Positions 142-19,724 of a stretch of 35,622 nucleotides of DNA are shown here, piece after piece. Each line of letters starts with the position of its first letter. The first letter of the stretch is position 1. A program made the position numbers and the translations under genes. The stretch is taken from assembly GCA_030635365.1 (NCBI GenBank), contig DAOVYZ010000001.1, positions 1 to 35,622 of the forward strand, written 5' to 3'. The stretch comes from Bacteroidales bacterium (GTDB lineage: Bacteria; Bacteroidota; Bacteroidia; Bacteroidales; UBA12077). The notes below the pieces were generated by a model. That model saw only the letters and a program-made list of their open reading frames with translations, did no database searches and had not been told where the DNA came from.

Positions 142-2476
142 AAGTGGAACTAATTCATTAAGTAAATCATTTAAAGCATTATTAGCTAATCCTGTTGTTT
201 TAATTTTGGCCTTAATTACGGGAGCCTTGGCTGCTCTTTTTGGTGCTTTCAAGAAATCTGAAAACGGGGCTAAGTTATTAGAGAAAGCAACTGCAGGATT
301 GAATGGTTTAATGATGATCTTAACAAGGGTAATGAATACTTTAGCTAAAGCCCTTACAAAAGCTTTTGAAGACCCTAAACAAGCTGTAATTGATTTATGG
401 GAGGCAATTAAAAAGAATTTGGTTAATAGGGTTGAGGGACTTATAAGACTTTTCAAAGCCCTTATAGATATAGACTTTTCAAACTTAAAAAAATCAGCAA
501 AAGAAGTTGCCAGCGCATTTGTGCAGGTTTCAACTGGTCTTGATGAAGAACAACAAAAAAAGATAGCAAAAGGTTTTGCAGATATAGCAAAAGAGGCTGC
601 TATTTTGGCTCAAAAAATGGCTGATTTGGCAGCGTCTCAAAGGGCTTTAAGGGCACAAAGCAGGATATTAGAAAAAGATATTGCTGTTTTAAATGCAGAA
701 TTTGAAATGCTTGGTGAAATTGCCGGAGATGATACCCGGAATATGGAAGAAATGAGACAGGCCGCCATTGATGCCGGGGCGGCTGCCGCTGAATTAGCAC
801 AAAAACAAGAGAAATTAGCACAAATAAGATTAAACACAATTAATCAGGAGGTTGCCGTTCGCAGGAGTGCCGGTGAAGATATACAAGATCTTTTAGATAA
901 ACAGGCTGATGCTGAAGTTGCATTAACAGAGGCCAGATCACAGGCGGCAATTGCTCAGCAAAAAATACTTATTGAACAGAGAAAAATAGAACGTGATATT
1001 TTTGAGCAAAATCTTGACATCCTTTTAGATGTTGGGGACAAAATTAAAACAGAGCAGGAAAAAGCAATTGCAAACGAAAGCTTTTCACTTGAAAAAAGAA
1101 AGCGATTATTAGAAGCCTCAAAAGTTGCATTAACGGCCAACTTTGACGAAATAAAAAAGGAATATGAATTGTACGGGGTTACAGCCGAACAAATAAATGA
1201 TGTCATTAACGCCAGCGATGCAAAACAAGCCAATGAAAAATTAAAAGCATTAGGTTTAAATGAAATTGCAATAAATAGATTGCGCGAAATCATCCTGGAA
1301 AGAAAACAAGCTGAATTAGATTTCAATGATTTATCAAAAGATTTAAGTGATGAAGAAATTGAAAGAAAAAAAGCCGCAAACGAAACAATACAAGAAATCA
1401 ATGAAGAGGCTGCTTTATCTCAAATTGAAAACGCTGAAGAGCTAAGGGATAAACTAATTGAATTTGAGGAGGCTCGTCTTCAATTATTATTAGAAGATGA
1501 AACGCTAATTGCTGAAGAAAGGCAGGCTATTATTTTAGAATCAGAAGAAAAGATTCGTGAAATAGAACAAATATTTGCAGATGAAAAAGAAGAAGACGAA
1601 GAAGACAGATTAGAAAAAAGAAAACAATTACTTGAAGGTTTCTTCTCTGATCTTATCCAAATTACCGGACGTTTCGCAGGTGATGAGATTGCTATATTTA
1701 GTAGGATAGCTGCCGGTATTGCCAAGGCTTTTGAAGATGGTAAAATCACAGCAGAAAACGCATTGGCCGGTATTTCTTTAATCTCAAATGCTGTATTTGA
1801 TAATTTATCTCAAAGAAGGGCACAAGATTTAACAGAAAACGAAGCGGCCAGACAAAAAGAATTAGAACTTGCAGAGGGTAATGCTCAGGCTCAAGATGAA
1901 ATAAATGAATTTTTTGATAAAAAGAATGCTGCCTTAAAATTAAAACAATTCAATTCAGACAAAGCAAGGGCGTTAGTAGATATTGCAATTGCTACGGCAG
2001 TGGCAGTCGTTAAAGCTTTGCCAAATATACCATTATCTATAATAGTGGGAGGCTTTGGATTAGCTCAAGGGCTAATAGTTGCATCAAAAAAGCCACCTAA
2101 ATTTGAAAAAGGTACCAGTGATATAGTAGGTATTGGAGACTCTCACGCTTCAGGAAATGATACAGATGTTTGGGGTTTTTCTGGTAACAAAAAACAGTAT
2201 TTTGGTAAAGTAGAACGTGGTGAAGCAATGCCAGTTATTCGTAAAAGTGCTGTGAATGATTATATGATAGCAAAGTTAAACGGACGTTTTAGTGGTAGAG
2301 GTCGGACTTTTCAGGATGGAACGCCAGATATTACTAACCAGGAAACACAAAACAATGAAGTTTTTGTATCTAATTTAGTTGATGCTTTTTCTAATATTCA
2401 AATTGTCGCAAAGATTGAAGACATTACCAAAGAAGCCGGGAAAAAGATTGAGATTGTTGATAATTCTAAGGTTTAA
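2..2476 (+). CDS. Tail tape measure protein, C-terminal part. It continues from 35078-35481 across the circular junction, giving 959 aa in total.
   Basis: The frame of ORF 206-2476 stays open back to nt 2 and is in phase with the ATG at 35078 once the 141-nt overlap is collapsed. The protein has long A/E/K/Q-rich coiled-coil sequence, a Gly/Ala/Val-rich hydrophobic stretch (ALVDIAIATAVAVVKALPNIPLSIIVGGFGLAQGLIVA), and is the largest ORF. The TTG start at 206 in the track is an artefact of the window edge. Confidence 0.85.
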   Translation, partial: TKEGREEYARLNEELGETNTQINEQRLAFNDSTKNIGKYKDSLKGAESGTNSLSKSFKALLANPVVLILALITGALAALFGAFKKSENGAKLLEKATAGLNGLMMILTRVMNTLAKALTKAFEDPKQAVIDLWEAIKKNLVNRVEGLIRLFKALIDIDFSNLKKSAKEVASAFVQVSTGLDEEQQKKIAKGFADIAKEAAILAQKMADLAASQRALRAQSRILEKDIAVLNAEFEMLGEIAGDDTRNMEEMRQAAIDAGAAAAELAQKQEKLAQIRLNTINQEVAVRRSAGEDIQDLLDKQADAEVALTEARSQAAIAQQKILIEQRKIERDIFEQNLDILLDVGDKIKTEQEKAIANESFSLEKRKRLLEASKVALTANFDEIKKEYELYGVTAEQINDVINASDAKQANEKLKALGLNEIAINRLREIILERKQAELDFNDLSKDLSDEEIERKKAANETIQEINEEAALSQIENAEELRDKLIEFEEARLQLLLEDETLIAEERQAIILESEEKIREIEQIFADEKEEDEEDRLEKRKQLLEGFFSDLIQITGRFAGDEIAIFSRIAAGIAKAFEDGKITAENALAGISLISNAVFDNLSQRRAQDLTENEAARQKELELAEGNAQAQDEINEFFDKKNAALKLKQFNSDKARALVDIAIATAVAVVKALPNIPLSIIVGGFGLAQGLIVASKKPPKFEKGTSDIVGIGDSHASGNDTDVWGFSGNKKQYFGKVERGEAMPVIRKSAVNDYMIAKLNGRFSGRGRTFQDGTPDITNQETQNNEVFVSNLVDAFSNIQIVAKIEDITKEAGKKIEIVDNSKV

Positions 2477-2793
2477 TATAATTTATTATAAATTGTATTT
2501 ATCTTTTCATTAGAAAGAAATTGGTGTTTAAATGTGTGTTTTTTAAATAATTCACCAAGTATTTTTATACTATCTTTTTCACTTTTTAATGCCATTCTTA
2601 CAAAAGAATCAAATAAATTAAATGTTCTATCCAAAATGACTTTGACCTCCCTATTTGTCATTGTTTGCGTTATTTTGCTTTTATAATAATCTTCGCATTT
2701 TTTGCAAAGTATTTGATTCAGTTCTTGTATATTTTGAGGGGTAGATAATTCTGATTGTTCGCATATTTTTAATAATTCATCATCTAAAAACAT
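2473..2793 (-). CDS. Hypothetical protein, 106 aa. It is the last gene of the minus-strand cassette.
   Basis: Clean ORF with an ATG start, 13 nt downstream of the HTH gene on the same strand. Its stop codon overlaps the tape measure stop in a shared TTAA (2473-2476). The sequence looks all-helical. I recognise no family. Confidence 0.6.
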   Translation of the reverse strand: MFLDDELLKICEQSELSTPQNIQELNQILCKKCEDYYKSKITQTMTNREVKVILDRTFNLFDSFVRMALKSEKDSIKILGELFKKHTFKHQFLSNEKINTIYNKLY

Positions 2794-2806
2794 AATTATT
2801 TATTTA

Positions 2807-2995
2807 TTAAACCAAATATTTCTTTCTAAACTCTTCTAAATCATCCTGTTTAATTCTATATTCAGTACGCAAACCATGTTTGACCTGAATAGCTTTGAGC
2901 TTTTCTTTTTGTTTGCCTACTCCGTTGCGTATATAGTTACGTACAGCTCCCGGACATACATATAATTTATTGGCGGCTTCTTTAACTGTCAACAT
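2807..2995 (-). CDS. Small HTH DNA-binding protein of the excisionase/MerR-like HTH_17 type.
   Basis: MLTVKEAANKLYVCPGAVRNYIRNG ... YRIKQDDLEEFRKKY matches the excisionase-family pattern: LT..EAA..L.vs...v...i..G, then a beta hairpin, then dl..f. It is 62 aa. Confidence 0.65.
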   Translation of the reverse strand: MLTVKEAANKLYVCPGAVRNYIRNGVGKQKEKLKAIQVKHGLRTEYRIKQDDLEEFRKKYLV

Positions 2996-3001
2996 ATTAT
3001 C

Positions 3002-3265
3002 TTAATTTGTTGAATAATAAGACATTTTAATTAAATCATGAATTGTTATTTTCTTAACTCCTTTATGTTTATTATACCATTTAATATAATCATTATTCAC
3101 AACTGTCAATTTAGTATCCGACAATGGCACAACATGATATCTTTTTTTAGTCATTTTGTGCAATTTATTTGCTTTGCGCTTCATTTTCCAAAAGTTATAA
3201 TAATTCAAAAGAGAATTAATTTCAAAAATAATCGAAGCTTTAATTTTGTTAAATACGTTTTTCAT
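3002..3265 (-). CDS. Hypothetical basic protein, 87 aa. It is the first gene of the minus-strand cassette.
   Basis: ORF with an ATG at 3265. It is K/R/H-rich. A TAAGTTTG box lies 4 nt upstream on the minus strand. I recognise no family. Confidence 0.55.
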   Translation of the reverse strand: MKNVFNKIKASIIFEINSLLNYYNFWKMKRKANKLHKMTKKRYHVVPLSDTKLTVVNNDYIKWYNKHKGVKKITIHDLIKMSYYSTN

Positions 3266-3269
3266 TCCA

Positions 3270-3277
3270 CAAACTTA
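3270..3277 (-). promoter_or_regulatory. Candidate Bacteroidota-type -7 promoter box (TAAGTTTG on the minus strand) for the minus-strand cassette. The transcript may be leaderless.
   Basis: The plus strand reads CAAACTTA, which is TAnnTTTG on the minus strand. The motif ends 4 nt before the ATG at 3265. Confidence 0.3.
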
Positions 3278-3286
3278 CGCAAAAAA

Positions 3287-3310
3287 TACATAAAAAGCAA
3301 AATTTATGTA
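3287..3310. promoter_or_regulatory. Perfect 8-bp inverted repeat, TACATAAA-N8-TTTATGTA, in the divergent intergenic region. It is a candidate operator.
   Basis: Read directly: 3287-3294 is TACATAAA and 3303-3310 is TTTATGTA, its reverse complement. It sits between the divergently transcribed cassette and the head operon. Confidence 0.35.
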
Positions 3311-3360
3311 ATGTACGTATTGATTTATATAATTCGCTTTGATATAGTTTTTATCTATAT

Positions 3361-3368
3361 TACTTTTG
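3361..3368 (+). promoter_or_regulatory. Candidate -7 promoter box (TACTTTTG) upstream of the head operon.
   Basis: It matches TAnnTTTG and lies 16 nt upstream of the ATG at 3384. Confidence 0.3.
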
Positions 3369-3383
3369 ATAAAAAATAAATTA

Positions 3384-4511
3384 ATGCCGAAACCCATTCT
3401 ATTATATACGGATATTTGGTCGCAATCTGCAAAAGATTTCACAGATCAGATATTGGAAACTCCAGAAAATGAAGCTATTGAAATATGGATGAACAGCCCC
3501 GGAGGCTCTGTTACGGCTGGATGGGCTATGATTGCAGCATTGAGCGAACATAAAAATGATGTTAATATTTCTGTAATGGGTGACGCTTCGTCAATGGCTT
3601 TTTTCATGCTACTTTTTGCTGATAATGTATTAGCTTATGATACTTCCAATTTTTTAGTTCACAGGGCATCGAGTTGGTTTGAAGATATTGCAGAAGAGTT
3701 TAAAAAGGATATTGAAAATCGTAATAAATTAATTCGTAAAAAATTAGAGGCTAGAATTGATGAAGAAAAATTTAAAAAAGTAACCGGAAAAACATTTGAT
3801 GATATTTTTGATATGGAAAATAGATTAGATGTTCGATTGACAGCTAAAGAAGCTAAAAAAATTGGCTTAGTTGACAAAGTTATAAAGCTTGATGTAAAGA
3901 AAAGAACAGAAATAGAAAGCCGTTATTTTAATGATATTGCGGCTCTAGCAACACCAAATACTAATTCAAAATCAAATAAAATGAGAATACTAAGCAAAGC
4001 GTTTGGTAAAGATGATCCGGTACTTTTGGCCACAATTGATGATTCTCAATTTGCTTATAGTAAATTAGAAAAAGGAGAATTAATTAAAGCCATTGGTGAA
4101 GGTGATCATAAGCCAATCTCTGGCACATTTGAGGCCAAAGATAAAATAATTACTGTTGTAGATAATAAAATTACAGCGGTGGAGGACATTGATAATAAGC
4201 AAATTCAGCTTGATAAACTGACCGAGCAAGTAACTGCGTTATCTGAGGCCGTTTCTAAAATTGGTGAAAAAGAACCAAAAAAAGAAGTAGCTGAAGATGA
4301 AAACCAAAAGCGGATTAATGCATTGACTAAACAAATTACTGATTTAACCGCTGTTTTGGATAAAGCAAAAATTACAAAGTCTGATCCTGATTTACCGGCG
4401 GGTGAATTTAAAGATGATATTGAGATTGAAGATGAACGCGATCTTCGTGAAAAATTGGTTGCACAACAAAACGAAAGCCATGAGGCAAAAATTAAATCAA
4501 GGGGGGCATAA
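3384..4511 (+). CDS. Prohead (head maturation) serine protease of the ClpP/S14 family, fused to a C-terminal scaffold-like coiled-coil region.
   Basis: The motifs MNSPGGSVTAG, GDASSMAF (catalytic Ser context) and FLVHRAS (His context) occur in ClpP-like order and spacing. The C-terminal ~190 aa are K/E/D-rich and helical. It sits directly upstream of the capsid gene. I prefer the ATG at 3384 over the TTG at 3366 used by the track. Confidence 0.8.
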   Translation: MPKPILLYTDIWSQSAKDFTDQILETPENEAIEIWMNSPGGSVTAGWAMIAALSEHKNDVNISVMGDASSMAFFMLLFADNVLAYDTSNFLVHRASSWFEDIAEEFKKDIENRNKLIRKKLEARIDEEKFKKVTGKTFDDIFDMENRLDVRLTAKEAKKIGLVDKVIKLDVKKRTEIESRYFNDIAALATPNTNSKSNKMRILSKAFGKDDPVLLATIDDSQFAYSKLEKGELIKAIGEGDHKPISGTFEAKDKIITVVDNKITAVEDIDNKQIQLDKLTEQVTALSEAVSKIGEKEPKKEVAEDENQKRINALTKQITDLTAVLDKAKITKSDPDLPAGEFKDDIEIEDERDLREKLVAQQNESHEAKIKSRGA

Positions 4512-9887: not shown

Positions 9888-10055
9888 ATGAAAACAGCTA
9901 AAGAAATAATTAAAGAAGCAATAAAAGAAGCTGAAGAAAAAAAACTGCCATTCCCTGATTCTTTTGCAAGAGGTGCATTGAGAGCAAAATACGATATGTT
10001 AAGAAGGGAATATTTAGAACTAAAAACGAACTTTGAAAAACTACAAAAGAAATGA
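9888..10055 (+). CDS. Small hypothetical protein, 55 aa. It is absent from the ORF track.
   Basis: Hand translation gives MKTAKEIIKEAIKEAEEKKLPFPDSFARGALRAKYDMLRREYLELKTNFEKLQKK. Its stop overlaps the next start as ATGA (10052-10055). The AATAAAGCTATATG start context matches other early genes. Confidence 0.55.
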   Translation: MKTAKEIIKEAIKEAEEKKLPFPDSFARGALRAKYDMLRREYLELKTNFEKLQKK

Positions 10056-10255
10056 AACAATTAAAGCAAAAAATAAGCCTTGAAATAAAAAAGACTTTAG
10101 AAAACTCGGAGCTTTGGATCACACGCAAGGTTTTGGCTAGAATGGCCGGGGTTTCAGAAACAACATTGTACAGCGCATTAAAAGGTGAGGGTTCACTTGA
10201 TAATTTAATGAAGGTGGCCAAGGTATTGAACATTAAAATTGATTTAATTAAATAA
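10052..10255 (+). CDS. XRE/Cro-type HTH transcriptional regulator.
   Basis: ITRKVLARMAGVSETTLYSALKGEGSLDNLMKVAKVLN fits the XRE helix-turn-helix pattern. It is 67 aa and is an early gene. Confidence 0.65.
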   Translation: MKQLKQKISLEIKKTLENSELWITRKVLARMAGVSETTLYSALKGEGSLDNLMKVAKVLNIKIDLIK

Positions 10256-10259
10256 AGCT

Positions 10260-15803: not shown

Positions 15804-16061
15804 ATGTTACATGCAAGAGAAGATTACAACAGAATCCAAGACCCGGAAAATAAGATTGGTGAAAATGAGCCTGTTTTTATAGTAAGGGCAAAAGACTCAT
15901 TTTCAACTCATACCATGCTAGCCTGGGCAGATGCTGTATTGTTTGAAGGACAATTAAAAAATGATAATAAATTAAAAGCAATGGCAGGTATGGTTTATGA
16001 ACACGTAAAAAAAACAATTGAATGGCAAAATGAAAACGGATGTAAAAATCCTGATTTATAA
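15804..16061 (+). CDS. Conserved phage hypothetical protein, 85 aa.
   Basis: The DP....ig.nEPVF..RakD ... W ... K.PDL pattern recalls a widespread phage family of unknown function, from memory. Confidence 0.45.
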   Translation: MLHAREDYNRIQDPENKIGENEPVFIVRAKDSFSTHTMLAWADAVLFEGQLKNDNKLKAMAGMVYEHVKKTIEWQNENGCKNPDL

Positions 16062-19167: not shown

Positions 19168-19182
19168 TAAATCAAAATTTTG

Positions 19183-19190
19183 TATATTTG
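19183..19190 (+). promoter_or_regulatory. Candidate -7 promoter box (TATATTTG) within the conserved TTTTGTATATTTG 13-mer.
   Basis: It lies 26 nt upstream of the ATG at 19216. Confidence 0.4.
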
Positions 19191-19215
19191 TCCATTATTA
19201 ACTAAAATTTTTATC

Positions 19216-19392
19216 ATGGATGATTTAATCAAACGCTTGACAAATTGGACATCAACTATTATCGGAACTATTGTATTTATGGTAGCGGCTTTTCTATTTT
19301 TTGAGATTATTACACCTACTTTAATTTGGCATACTATTGTGGAAATGCTAGCAATGTTTTGCGGTGTCGTTCTTATTTTTTCAAGATTGTAA
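19216..19392 (+). CDS. Small membrane protein, 58 aa with two TM helices.
   Basis: From ATG 19216 the translation is MDDLIKRLTNWTSTIIGTIVFMVAAFLFFEIITPTLIWHTIVEMLAMFCGVVLIFSRL. I reject the track's TTG start at 19180 because it lies inside the promoter-like box. Confidence 0.5.
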   Translation: MDDLIKRLTNWTSTIIGTIVFMVAAFLFFEIITPTLIWHTIVEMLAMFCGVVLIFSRL

Positions 19393-19395
19393 GGC

Positions 19396-19518
19396 ATGAA
19401 TGAAATAATTCCAGGTATATTAATATTTATAGCAATAATACTCACATTTTTTATGCCTGCATGGTTGGAAATAATAGAACATAAAAAATGGATGAAGAAA
19501 AATAATATAAAGCCATGA
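19396..19518 (+). CDS. Candidate 40-aa single-pass membrane peptide. It is absent from the ORF track.
   Basis: Translation is MNEIIPGILIFIAIILTFFMPAWLEIIEHKKWMKKNNIKP. Its stop overlaps the next ATG as ATGA (19515-19518). Confidence 0.45.
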   Translation: MNEIIPGILIFIAIILTFFMPAWLEIIEHKKWMKKNNIKP

Positions 19519-19724
19519 ACTTCGACTTCAAATATATTAAATTAGCATTGAATTTATTCTTTTTAGCTTTAATTAGCTATATGGGATTTGCATTGTTTAA
19601 TGCTGGGTCATTTAACCCAGTCGATTGGTATCCAAAATCACAAATATATTTTATTGTTGTTTTGATTTGCTGTGTATTGGCTTATATGGTTTTTTCAGCT
19701 GAATTACCGAAAAATAAAGAATAA
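19515..19724 (+). CDS. Small membrane protein, 69 aa with two TM helices.
   Basis: The hydrophobic segments are LALNLFFLALISYMGFALF and IYFIVVLICCVLAYMVF. Confidence 0.5.
   Translation: MNFDFKYIKLALNLFFLALISYMGFALFNAGSFNPVDWYPKSQIYFIVVLICCVLAYMVFSAELPKNKE

Follow-up and report, generated by a model that had tools for sequence, protein, structure and literature searches.

We analyzed a cassette of three small genes that lies on the minus strand between the tape measure gene and the ClpP-like head protease gene of a phage genome, represented by contig DAOVYZ010000001.1 of a Bacteroidales bacterium (assembly GCA_030635365.1); the whole stretch of 35,622 nt is referred to here as the window. The first gene of the cassette (3265 to 3002, minus strand) encodes a protein of 87 aa and the third gene (2793 to 2473, minus strand) an all-helical protein of 106 aa. 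Both were taken from the listing of open reading frames (ORFs) and are regarded as cargo. The second gene (2995 to 2807, minus strand) encodes a 62-aa DNA-binding protein with an excisionase/MerR-like helix-turn-helix (HTH) domain of the HTH_17 family (Pfam PF12728), which is the anchor of the hot spot described below and the presumed autoregulator of the locus. The three ORFs and the divergent region of 118 nt agree in every coordinate with a preliminary description made from the sequence alone. The intergenic gaps are as short as 6 nt (87-aa gene to HTH gene) and 13 nt (HTH gene to 106-aa gene), and a single promoter precedes all three genes, from which we infer that they are co-transcribed. 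At the distal end, the stop codon of the 106-aa gene (2475 to 2473) overlaps the stop codon of the convergent tape measure gene (2474-2476) in one TTAA (2473-2476). As pointed out in the preliminary description, this leaves no room for a terminator; indeed, no terminator-like hairpin is present between the two genes. The last gene of the cassette also overlaps the 3' end of the tape measure gene in three related loci (L007, L035, and L053).

The three minus-strand genes are real. In comparison with locus L007 of a related phage, the HTH gene has 15 synonymous and no non-synonymous codon changes, and the 87-aa gene has four synonymous changes and one non-synonymous change; for the 106-aa gene, the evidence consists of its homologues and a confident AlphaFold2 (AF2) model, both described below. 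The base differences to L007 amount to 1.9% in the 87-aa gene versus 9%, all of them synonymous, in the neighboring HTH gene, which suggests that the 87-aa gene was recently exchanged between the two phages. The genes also differ in composition. The GC contents of the 87-aa gene (22.3%) and the 106-aa gene (23.1%) are low, in contrast to the HTH gene (34.4%), which is close to the neighboring core genes (34-38%). This GC contrast, together with the presence in relatives and the gene swaps reported in the following, shows that the HTH gene is a resident core gene and that the two flanking genes are mobile cargo.

The relatives belong to an uncultured lineage of Bacteroidia phages known from metagenomes, and ten distinct loci, including the window, were compared in layout. 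L007 was retrieved with the 87-aa protein, seven loci (L032, L033, L035, L037, L038, L050, and L051) were retrieved with the HTH protein, and the pair L052/L053 was retrieved with the capsid protein and thus without a bias toward the HTH. In all ten, an HTH_17 gene is located in antisense orientation between the tape measure gene and the ClpP-like head protease gene. Its neighbors vary extensively (listed in cassette orientation, with protein sizes in aa). The HTH gene is flanked by the 87-aa and the 106-aa genes in the window, by genes for 87 and 60 aa in L007, by a YopX gene (152 aa) and a gene for 80 aa in L038, and by a gene for 64 aa and two downstream genes (60 aa and a phosphoadenosine phosphosulfate (PAPS) reductase of 297 aa) in L032. 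Three genes (55, 86, and 72 aa) precede it in L037, where a transmembrane protein of 64 aa follows, and four (145, 127, 64, and 131 aa) precede it in L033, where two (69 and 83 aa) follow. It comes last in L050, after genes for 87 aa, a YopX protein of 117 aa, and 71 aa, and also in L052/L053, after genes for 124 aa, 72 aa, an N6_N4 methyltransferase, 110 aa, a Dam methyltransferase, 73 aa, and 58 aa. In L051 the HTH, with a zinc-finger tail, comes first and is followed by a gene for 96 aa, and in L035 it stands without any cargo. Altogether, the number of genes upstream of the HTH gene ranges from zero (L035) to eight (L053, according to the ORF listing), and that of downstream genes from zero to two.

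The turnover of the cargo is high: 23 cargo proteins from eight loci fell into 18 sequence families. The swap between the window and L007 is the most direct example, because the two are near-identical in the promoter, the 87-aa gene and the HTH gene, have unrelated third genes (106 versus 60 aa), and are identical again from the stop codon of the tape measure gene onward. The interval from the tape measure gene to the protease gene is thus a lineage-wide hot spot, where small accessory genes are gained, lost, or exchanged around an HTH anchor. A variable presence in relatives had been proposed as a check in the preliminary description, and the outcome, small genes swapped around a conserved HTH, is what the idea of an accessory island similar to those of anti-CRISPR-associated (Aca) regulators predicts. 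The sole functional hint comes from the cargo of the relatives and not from the two proteins of the window itself: the two methyltransferases in L052/L053 are orphan DNA methyltransferases, and the PAPS reductase at the same site in L032 is BrxP-like (E 5e-20). DNA-modifying enzymes are classical counter-restriction cargo. The cassette of L053 (L053:491-4114; also in L052, both being IMG/VR contigs) is an antisense cassette of 3.7 kb in the tape measure/protease gap that comprises the N6_N4 DNA methyltransferase (249 aa), the Dam-type methyltransferase (275 aa), a second HTH-like gene (72 aa), several small ORFs, and the terminal HTH_17 gene, the stop codon of which overlaps that of the tape measure gene.

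The preliminary description had assigned an excisionase-type HTH to the middle gene, and profile searches bear this out. The protein scored 35.6 bits against HTH_17 (cut-off 27), with residues 1-59 aligned to profile positions 1-49 of 51; it is thus a member of this family, with a score above the curated gathering threshold across the domain. Two matches to excisionases are weaker, namely to the NCBIfam model TIGR01764 'excise' (23.7 bits, under the cut-off of 28.8; E 4e-5) and to the structure of the Pukovnik Xis protein (4j2n; E 0.025). According to the domain alignment, residues 12-17 would span the turn and the beginning of the second helix. The HTH (2810-2995, minus strand) also matches, over its full length, the PADLOC model mad1 of the MADS defence system (E 1.7e-5), which probably reflects mere common HTH_17 ancestry. 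In the L051 orthologue (L051:1534-1827), the domain is followed by a C-terminal extension of 35 aa with a C2H2-like zinc-finger pattern (CKICGESFKEYDELYQHYDENH).

The control region between the cassette and the head operon (3266-3383, 118 nt) has a GC content of only 19.5% and contains two promoters back-to-back. The cassette promoter (3301 to 3270, minus strand) is of the Bacteroidota sigma-A type and consists of a -33 box TTTG (3301 to 3298), a 20 nt spacer, and a -7 box TAAGTTTG (3277 to 3270) that ends 4 nt ahead of the ATG of the 87-aa gene. The head-operon promoter (3338-3368, plus strand) has the form TTTG-N19-TACTTTTG and is followed by the ATG of the protease gene at 3384. TAnnTTTG boxes facing both ways, with the minus-strand box 4 nt before the ATG, had already been described and are indeed present. 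The motif TAnnTTTG alone is common in the genome, with 42 copies on the plus strand and 39 on the minus strand; the full -33/-7 pattern occurs four times on the plus strand and three times on the minus strand, and the full consensus lies exactly upstream of both divergent operons. The cassette promoter is retained in seven of the eight aligned relatives, and in an alignment of eight spacers the two promoters are conserved together, as one unit. The start codon follows the -7 box after 4 nt in the loci that begin with the 87-aa gene (the window, L007, and L050), and after a leader of 16-20 nt in those that begin with another gene. In Flavobacterium psychrophilum, the sigma-A box is located at -12 to -5 (PMC9723704). 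Given this position and the box 4 nt before the ATG, the cassette mRNA is predicted to be probably leaderless, with the A of the 87-aa start codon (3265) as +1; leaderless mRNAs make up about 4-6% of the mRNAs in Bacteroidota. The near-leaderless mRNA suggested in the preliminary description is thus supported as a prediction. The head promoter has a further feature: an inverted repeat ATATAG-N7-CTATAT (3342-3360) fills its 19 nt spacer exactly. It is present with 7-bp arms in L033 and L038 and with 5-bp arms in L050, and is absent from L007, L032, L037, and L051; it may be the operator of a different regulator or a chance feature of AT-rich DNA.

Upstream of the -33 box of the cassette promoter, at a distance of 3 nt, are two tandem hexamers, TACGTA-CAT-TACATA (3305 to 3319, minus strand), with a period of 9 bp, which we propose as the operator of the HTH_17 protein. 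The pattern occurs once in the genome (0.12 copies expected), and there is no near-copy at another promoter. A hexamer pair is found at the same position in eight loci, in which the N3 spacers vary and the hexamers hold. Two types of sites can be distinguished. HTH proteins with xVC[PT]G[AT] at residues 12-17 go with TACGTA-N3-T[AG]CATA (the window, L007, L033, and L051), and those with x[VL]E[PQR]QT go with AAC[GA]TT-N3-A[AT][CT]GTT (L032, L037, L038, and L050), so that site type and residue type are concordant in all eight loci. The rest of the protein does not follow this split: outside of residues 12-17, the HTH of L050 (QT type) is 96% identical to that of the window, and the HTH of L051 (VC type) only 71%. 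The site type is also independent of the first gene of the cassette, as L050 starts with an 87-aa gene and has AACGTT, and L051 has no upstream gene and has TACGTA. The concordance and the single copy in the genome argue for the hexamer pair as the likely operator of the HTH protein, which would regulate its own promoter and this locus only.

A different operator candidate had been put forward in the preliminary description, the palindrome TACATAAA-N8-TTTATGTA at 3287-3310. The palindrome is indeed perfect and unique in the genome, and its left arm, the only part that the tandem hexamers overlap, contains the second hexamer. However, inverted repeats of this quality (arms of at least 8 nt, spacer of at most 14 nt) were found in 2.7% of the 118-nt windows of the genome and in 15% of the shuffled versions of this spacer, and therefore the palindrome is only weakly beyond chance. 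Of the relatives, L007 alone retains it; L033 and L051 have a degenerate right arm despite HTH proteins of the same residue 12-17 type as in the window. L037 has an analogous palindrome of another sequence at the same place. We therefore rejected the palindrome as a conserved operator. Its right arm is possibly a third, inverted hexamer within the promoter spacer.

The cargo proteins were stated in the preliminary description to have no recognizable family, and the searches revealed that both are members of widespread, uncharacterized phage families that lack a Pfam match and a fold match in the PDB. The 87-aa protein is strongly basic (pI 10.1; 19 K+R versus 4 D+E). Its AF2 model, with a predicted local distance difference test score (pLDDT) of 84.5, comprises a long N-terminal helix (residues 2-39), a beta-hairpin, and two helices. 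The family has the invariant signature KRYHV...MSYYST, with MSYYST at the C-terminus, and many conserved polar residues. In addition to 20 close homologues, a family profile search of 1.84 billion representatives yielded 217 clusters at 50% identity (E<=1e-3, about 44-190 aa); all were small stand-alone proteins, and no informative domain fusion was found among these representatives. The 87-aa protein matched nothing in Pfam, NCBIfam, or PADLOC, and its matches in PHROGs were limited to families of unknown function. The model had no significant match in the PDB using Foldseek (best E 1.5) and gave weak matches to MADS-box-like folds (probability <0.1). Members of the family were found neither among 50,697 isolate phage records (tblastn) nor among 185,579 species, each represented by one genome.

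The 106-aa family comprises 90 homologues of 103-148 aa, none of which has a Pfam domain, and has a near-invariant N-terminus, MFLDDELL. The AF2 model has six helices and a high pLDDT of 95.6; using Foldseek, no fold relatives were found in the PDB (best E 0.8) or in BFVD (best E 0.6). The protein has no match in Pfam, NCBIfam, PADLOC, or the PHROGs with an assigned function, and the family was also not found in the isolate phage records by tblastn. Profile searches of two family alignments (A1 and A2) against PDB sequences yielded only chance-level matches. The 106-aa family occurs in at least five different phage settings, including a position before the terminase gene, a position beside a helicase-like gene and QueD, a Mu-like early region, and a position before an S49 protease gene. 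Outside of the tape measure/protease gap, both families are found in early or replication regions of other phages; for example, the 87-aa family member in L004 lies within a replication module. Taken together, the two cargo genes are AT-rich and appear, judged from composition and distribution, to be horizontally exchanged members of two uncharacterized phage families.

Two further observations concern the 87-aa family. In two Mu-like contigs (L006:6001-6509 and L013:3977-4493), a family member and a conserved HTH_3 gene form an antisense pair inside structural genes; therefore, the 87-aa cargo family adjoins a small HTH also in an unrelated phage group. For most family members elsewhere, an HTH neighbor is absent. 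The gene that follows DnaA_C in the window (15804-16061) was considered as a candidate paralogue because of the layout of L004, and was rejected since its sequence is unrelated to that of the 87-aa gene.

The window is one entire contig of a metagenome-assembled genome (MAG) of 3.4 Mb. Its first and last 141 nt are identical, indicating a complete circular assembly of 35,481 bp. A Pfam scan of 43 ORFs revealed structural and packaging genes (the small and large terminase subunits, a portal-like protein, a ClpP protease, and a LamG tail protein) as well as genes for replication and recombination (RecT, a PDDEXK protein, DnaA_C, a Dam methylase, and YopX). In agreement with the earlier statement that no integrase is visible, integrases, recombinases, and partition proteins had no match among the 43 ORFs of this complete genome. 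A DNA search of the region against the isolate phage records gave no match, and the nearest isolate according to the capsid protein is Nonlabens phage P12024L, with 28% identity.

With moderate confidence, we interpret the cassette as an accessory operon that regulates itself, has a leaderless mRNA, and occupies a hot spot found throughout the lineage, in which the HTH is the core anchor and the cargo is exchangeable and likely serves early host takeover or counter-defence. The three genes would form one operon transcribed from a host sigma-A-type promoter that is arranged back-to-back with the promoter of the head operon. The host RNA polymerase would start at 3265 and produce a leaderless tricistronic mRNA. 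As the HTH protein accumulates, it would occupy TACGTA-N3-TACATA beside the -33 box and shut off its own promoter, in the way in which Aca proteins repress anti-CRISPR operons. The cargo would act early, most likely in host takeover or counter-defence; the relatives carry the orphan DNA methyltransferases and the BrxP-like PAPS reductase at this site. The convergent overlap with the tape measure gene, which lacks a terminator, would imply that the two transcription units are separated in time or that antisense interference occurs. For the cargo, a specific anti-defence function is plausible, with the odds clearly against it. More far-reaching, and at best a tentative proposal, is an HTH_17-anchored counter-defence island in which the 87-aa and 106-aa proteins would found two new families of defence inhibitors or takeover proteins, and in which VC..G.–TACGTA and.E.QT–AACGTT would constitute a swappable recognition code. 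The Aca-like or anti-defence module of the preliminary description thus stands in part: small genes do vary around a conserved HTH, but the HTH is a core gene that occurs alone in L035 and is not a private regulator of the cargo, and an anti-defence or immunity function of the 87-aa and 106-aa proteins is unsupported.

Several points weigh against this interpretation. Neither of the two cargo proteins matches a PADLOC defence model, and neither is acidic, so that they do not resemble DNA mimics. The hexamer pattern was defined post hoc, after the data had been seen, and the concordance comes from only eight loci and could partly be explained by linkage; a single recombination with a breakpoint just after codon 17 could explain the case of L050. 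Moreover, L035, in which the HTH is of the QT type and stands alone, has no recognizable hexamer pair, and in L053 (residues NVEPAT) the upstream region is longer and different. Lastly, the HTH could equally be a regulator of the adjacent head promoter. In this case, the protein would be chiefly a timing regulator of the head (late) operon that activates or represses the protease/capsid promoter, and the cargo would hitch-hike, a role that is compatible with autoregulation. It would be in accord with the core status of the HTH and its solitary occurrence in L035, with the location of the site 17 nt from the -33 box of the head promoter, and with the conservation of the divergent promoters as a unit. 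However, the hexamers abut the -33 box of the cassette promoter (3 nt) and not that of the head promoter, the head promoter already has a perfect sigma-A consensus, and there are no operator copies at other late promoters, so that we regard this explanation as unlikely.

Three other explanations, an immunity switch, a toxin-antitoxin-like pair, and an excisionase, were rejected for the following reasons. A minimal lysis-lysogeny or superinfection-immunity module, which the preliminary description had also considered, would make the HTH a CI-like prophage repressor and the flanking genes exclusion genes. Antisense genes with their own promoter within late operons are indeed typical of prophage-expressed morons, and the cargo of L037 includes a small membrane protein (64 aa). 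Yet such a module is quite improbable in a genome in which 43 ORFs gave no match to an integrase, a recombinase, or a partition protein. In addition, no relative of the 87-aa family was found in the species genomes, and the sole HTH relative found there lies on a 26-kb MAG contig with the same phage genes, so that no prophage copy was found in this collection. The genome has only one operator, with no copy at the early region, and 62 aa leave no room for an oligomerization or cleavage domain. Even less probable is a toxin-antitoxin-like pair of the 87-aa protein and the HTH in the order of HigB/HigA, with the toxin first. A small HTH gene directly follows a member of the 87-aa family in two phage groups that are not related (HTH_17 here, HTH_3 in L006 and L013), and the protein combines a small size and a basic character with many conserved polar residues; but the pairing is not obligate, since most family members lack an HTH neighbor, HTH_17 occurs without the 87-aa gene in seven of ten loci, and two genes separate the partners in L050, and the model of the 87-aa protein does not have a RelE/HigB-like fold. 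That the 62-aa protein is an excisionase (a recombination directionality factor) we consider next to negligible. Its family resemblance (HTH_17, with the TIGR01764 match under the cut-off and the Pukovnik Xis match) and the fact that Xis-type proteins such as lambda Xis bind tandem repeats are set against a circular genome of 35.5 kb without an integrase, without an att-like context, and without integrated copies.

The logic of the locus, read as an autoregulated accessory operon, appears closest to that of Aca-anchored anti-CRISPR (Acr) or anti-defence operons and of morons. As in the anti-CRISPR operons with Aca1 or Aca2 and at the AcrIIA1 anchor of Listeria phages, a small HTH gene forms one operon with small genes that evolve rapidly and vary among close relatives; a presumed binding site at the own promoter would imply negative autoregulation, and the island lies inside the region of the structural genes. 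The operators of Aca1 and Aca2 are typically inverted repeats, in contrast to the presumed operator here, which is a tandem hexamer pair. The locus also differs in that none of its cargo is a known Acr, in that cargo lies on both sides of the HTH and the HTH persists without cargo, and in the combination of an excisionase-type HTH, a Bacteroidia host, sigma-A -33/-7 promoters, and a predicted leaderless mRNA. HTH_17 proteins have been seen beside Acr homologues (PMC6739104). With phage morons of the lambda and HK97 type, the cassette shares the deviating, AT-rich composition, the variable presence in close relatives, and the position between structural modules. However, classical morons are single genes that each have their own promoter and terminator, whereas at this hot spot a single promoter and a single conserved regulator serve as many as eight cargo genes, in an antisense cassette with no visible terminator.

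The immI region of P22 (mnt / arc-ant), with tiny DNA-binding repressors and divergent promoters within late genes, also resembles the cassette. The differences are the HTH_17 domain instead of ribbon-helix-helix proteins, the lack of an antirepressor homologue, and the lack of any sign that the phage is temperate. The HTHs of the excisionase family (the Xis proteins of Tn916 and Pukovnik, AlpA, TorI, and PADLOC mad1) have the same domain, a similar size of about 60 aa, and likely tandem sites, but here an integrase partner is missing and the protein is the fixed anchor of a transcription unit in a seemingly non-integrating phage. The Nonlabens phages P12024L/S (Inhavirus) have a genome of similar size (35.6 kb), and in P12024L (L040:4159-6522, NC_018272) eight small minus-strand genes, gp51-gp58, are located between a gene for 686 aa and the head protease gene. 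However, this protease is of the S78_2 family, and neither an HTH_17 match nor an 87-aa or 106-aa homologue is present; the arrangement is regarded as analogous only.

In phages of Proteobacteria and Firmicutes, no other route has yielded new anti-CRISPR and anti-defence proteins as productively as variable islands anchored by a regulator, and, to our knowledge, comparable anchors have hardly been described for phages of Bacteroidota. The HTH anchor and the fixed address in the tape measure/head protease gap allow candidate cargo to be harvested, of which the proteins compared here already represent 18 families. The locus also offers two sizeable families of small proteins whose structure models are confident or fair and for which no fold relative is known. 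Moreover, it is a small and testable system in which a recognition helix co-varies with its presumed operator, within the little-studied family of excisionase-type HTHs and on a Bacteroidota sigma-A promoter with a predicted leaderless transcript. If the counter-defence reading is true, the HTH gene would be a guilt-by-association anchor for anti-defence genes in a phylum with almost none known; if the cargo consists of ordinary early genes, the locus would still illustrate clearly how genes are exchanged as modules at a phage hot spot.

The cassette had been described as the only one on the minus strand, and this holds. Outside of the tape measure gene, four other minus-strand ORFs of at least 80 aa were checked; they have no Pfam match and are overlapped by plus-strand ORFs, and thus look like shadows. 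At the start of the early region (9889-10256, plus strand), two small ORFs of about 55 and 67 aa are located beneath one such shadow ORF (9910-10233, minus strand), and the second of them has an HTH-like sequence (ARMAGVSETTLYSALKG). Directly before the small terminase gene, three ORFs of 70, 40, and 69 aa with many hydrophobic segments lie in a row (19180-19724, plus strand), which may represent a holin or lysis cluster.

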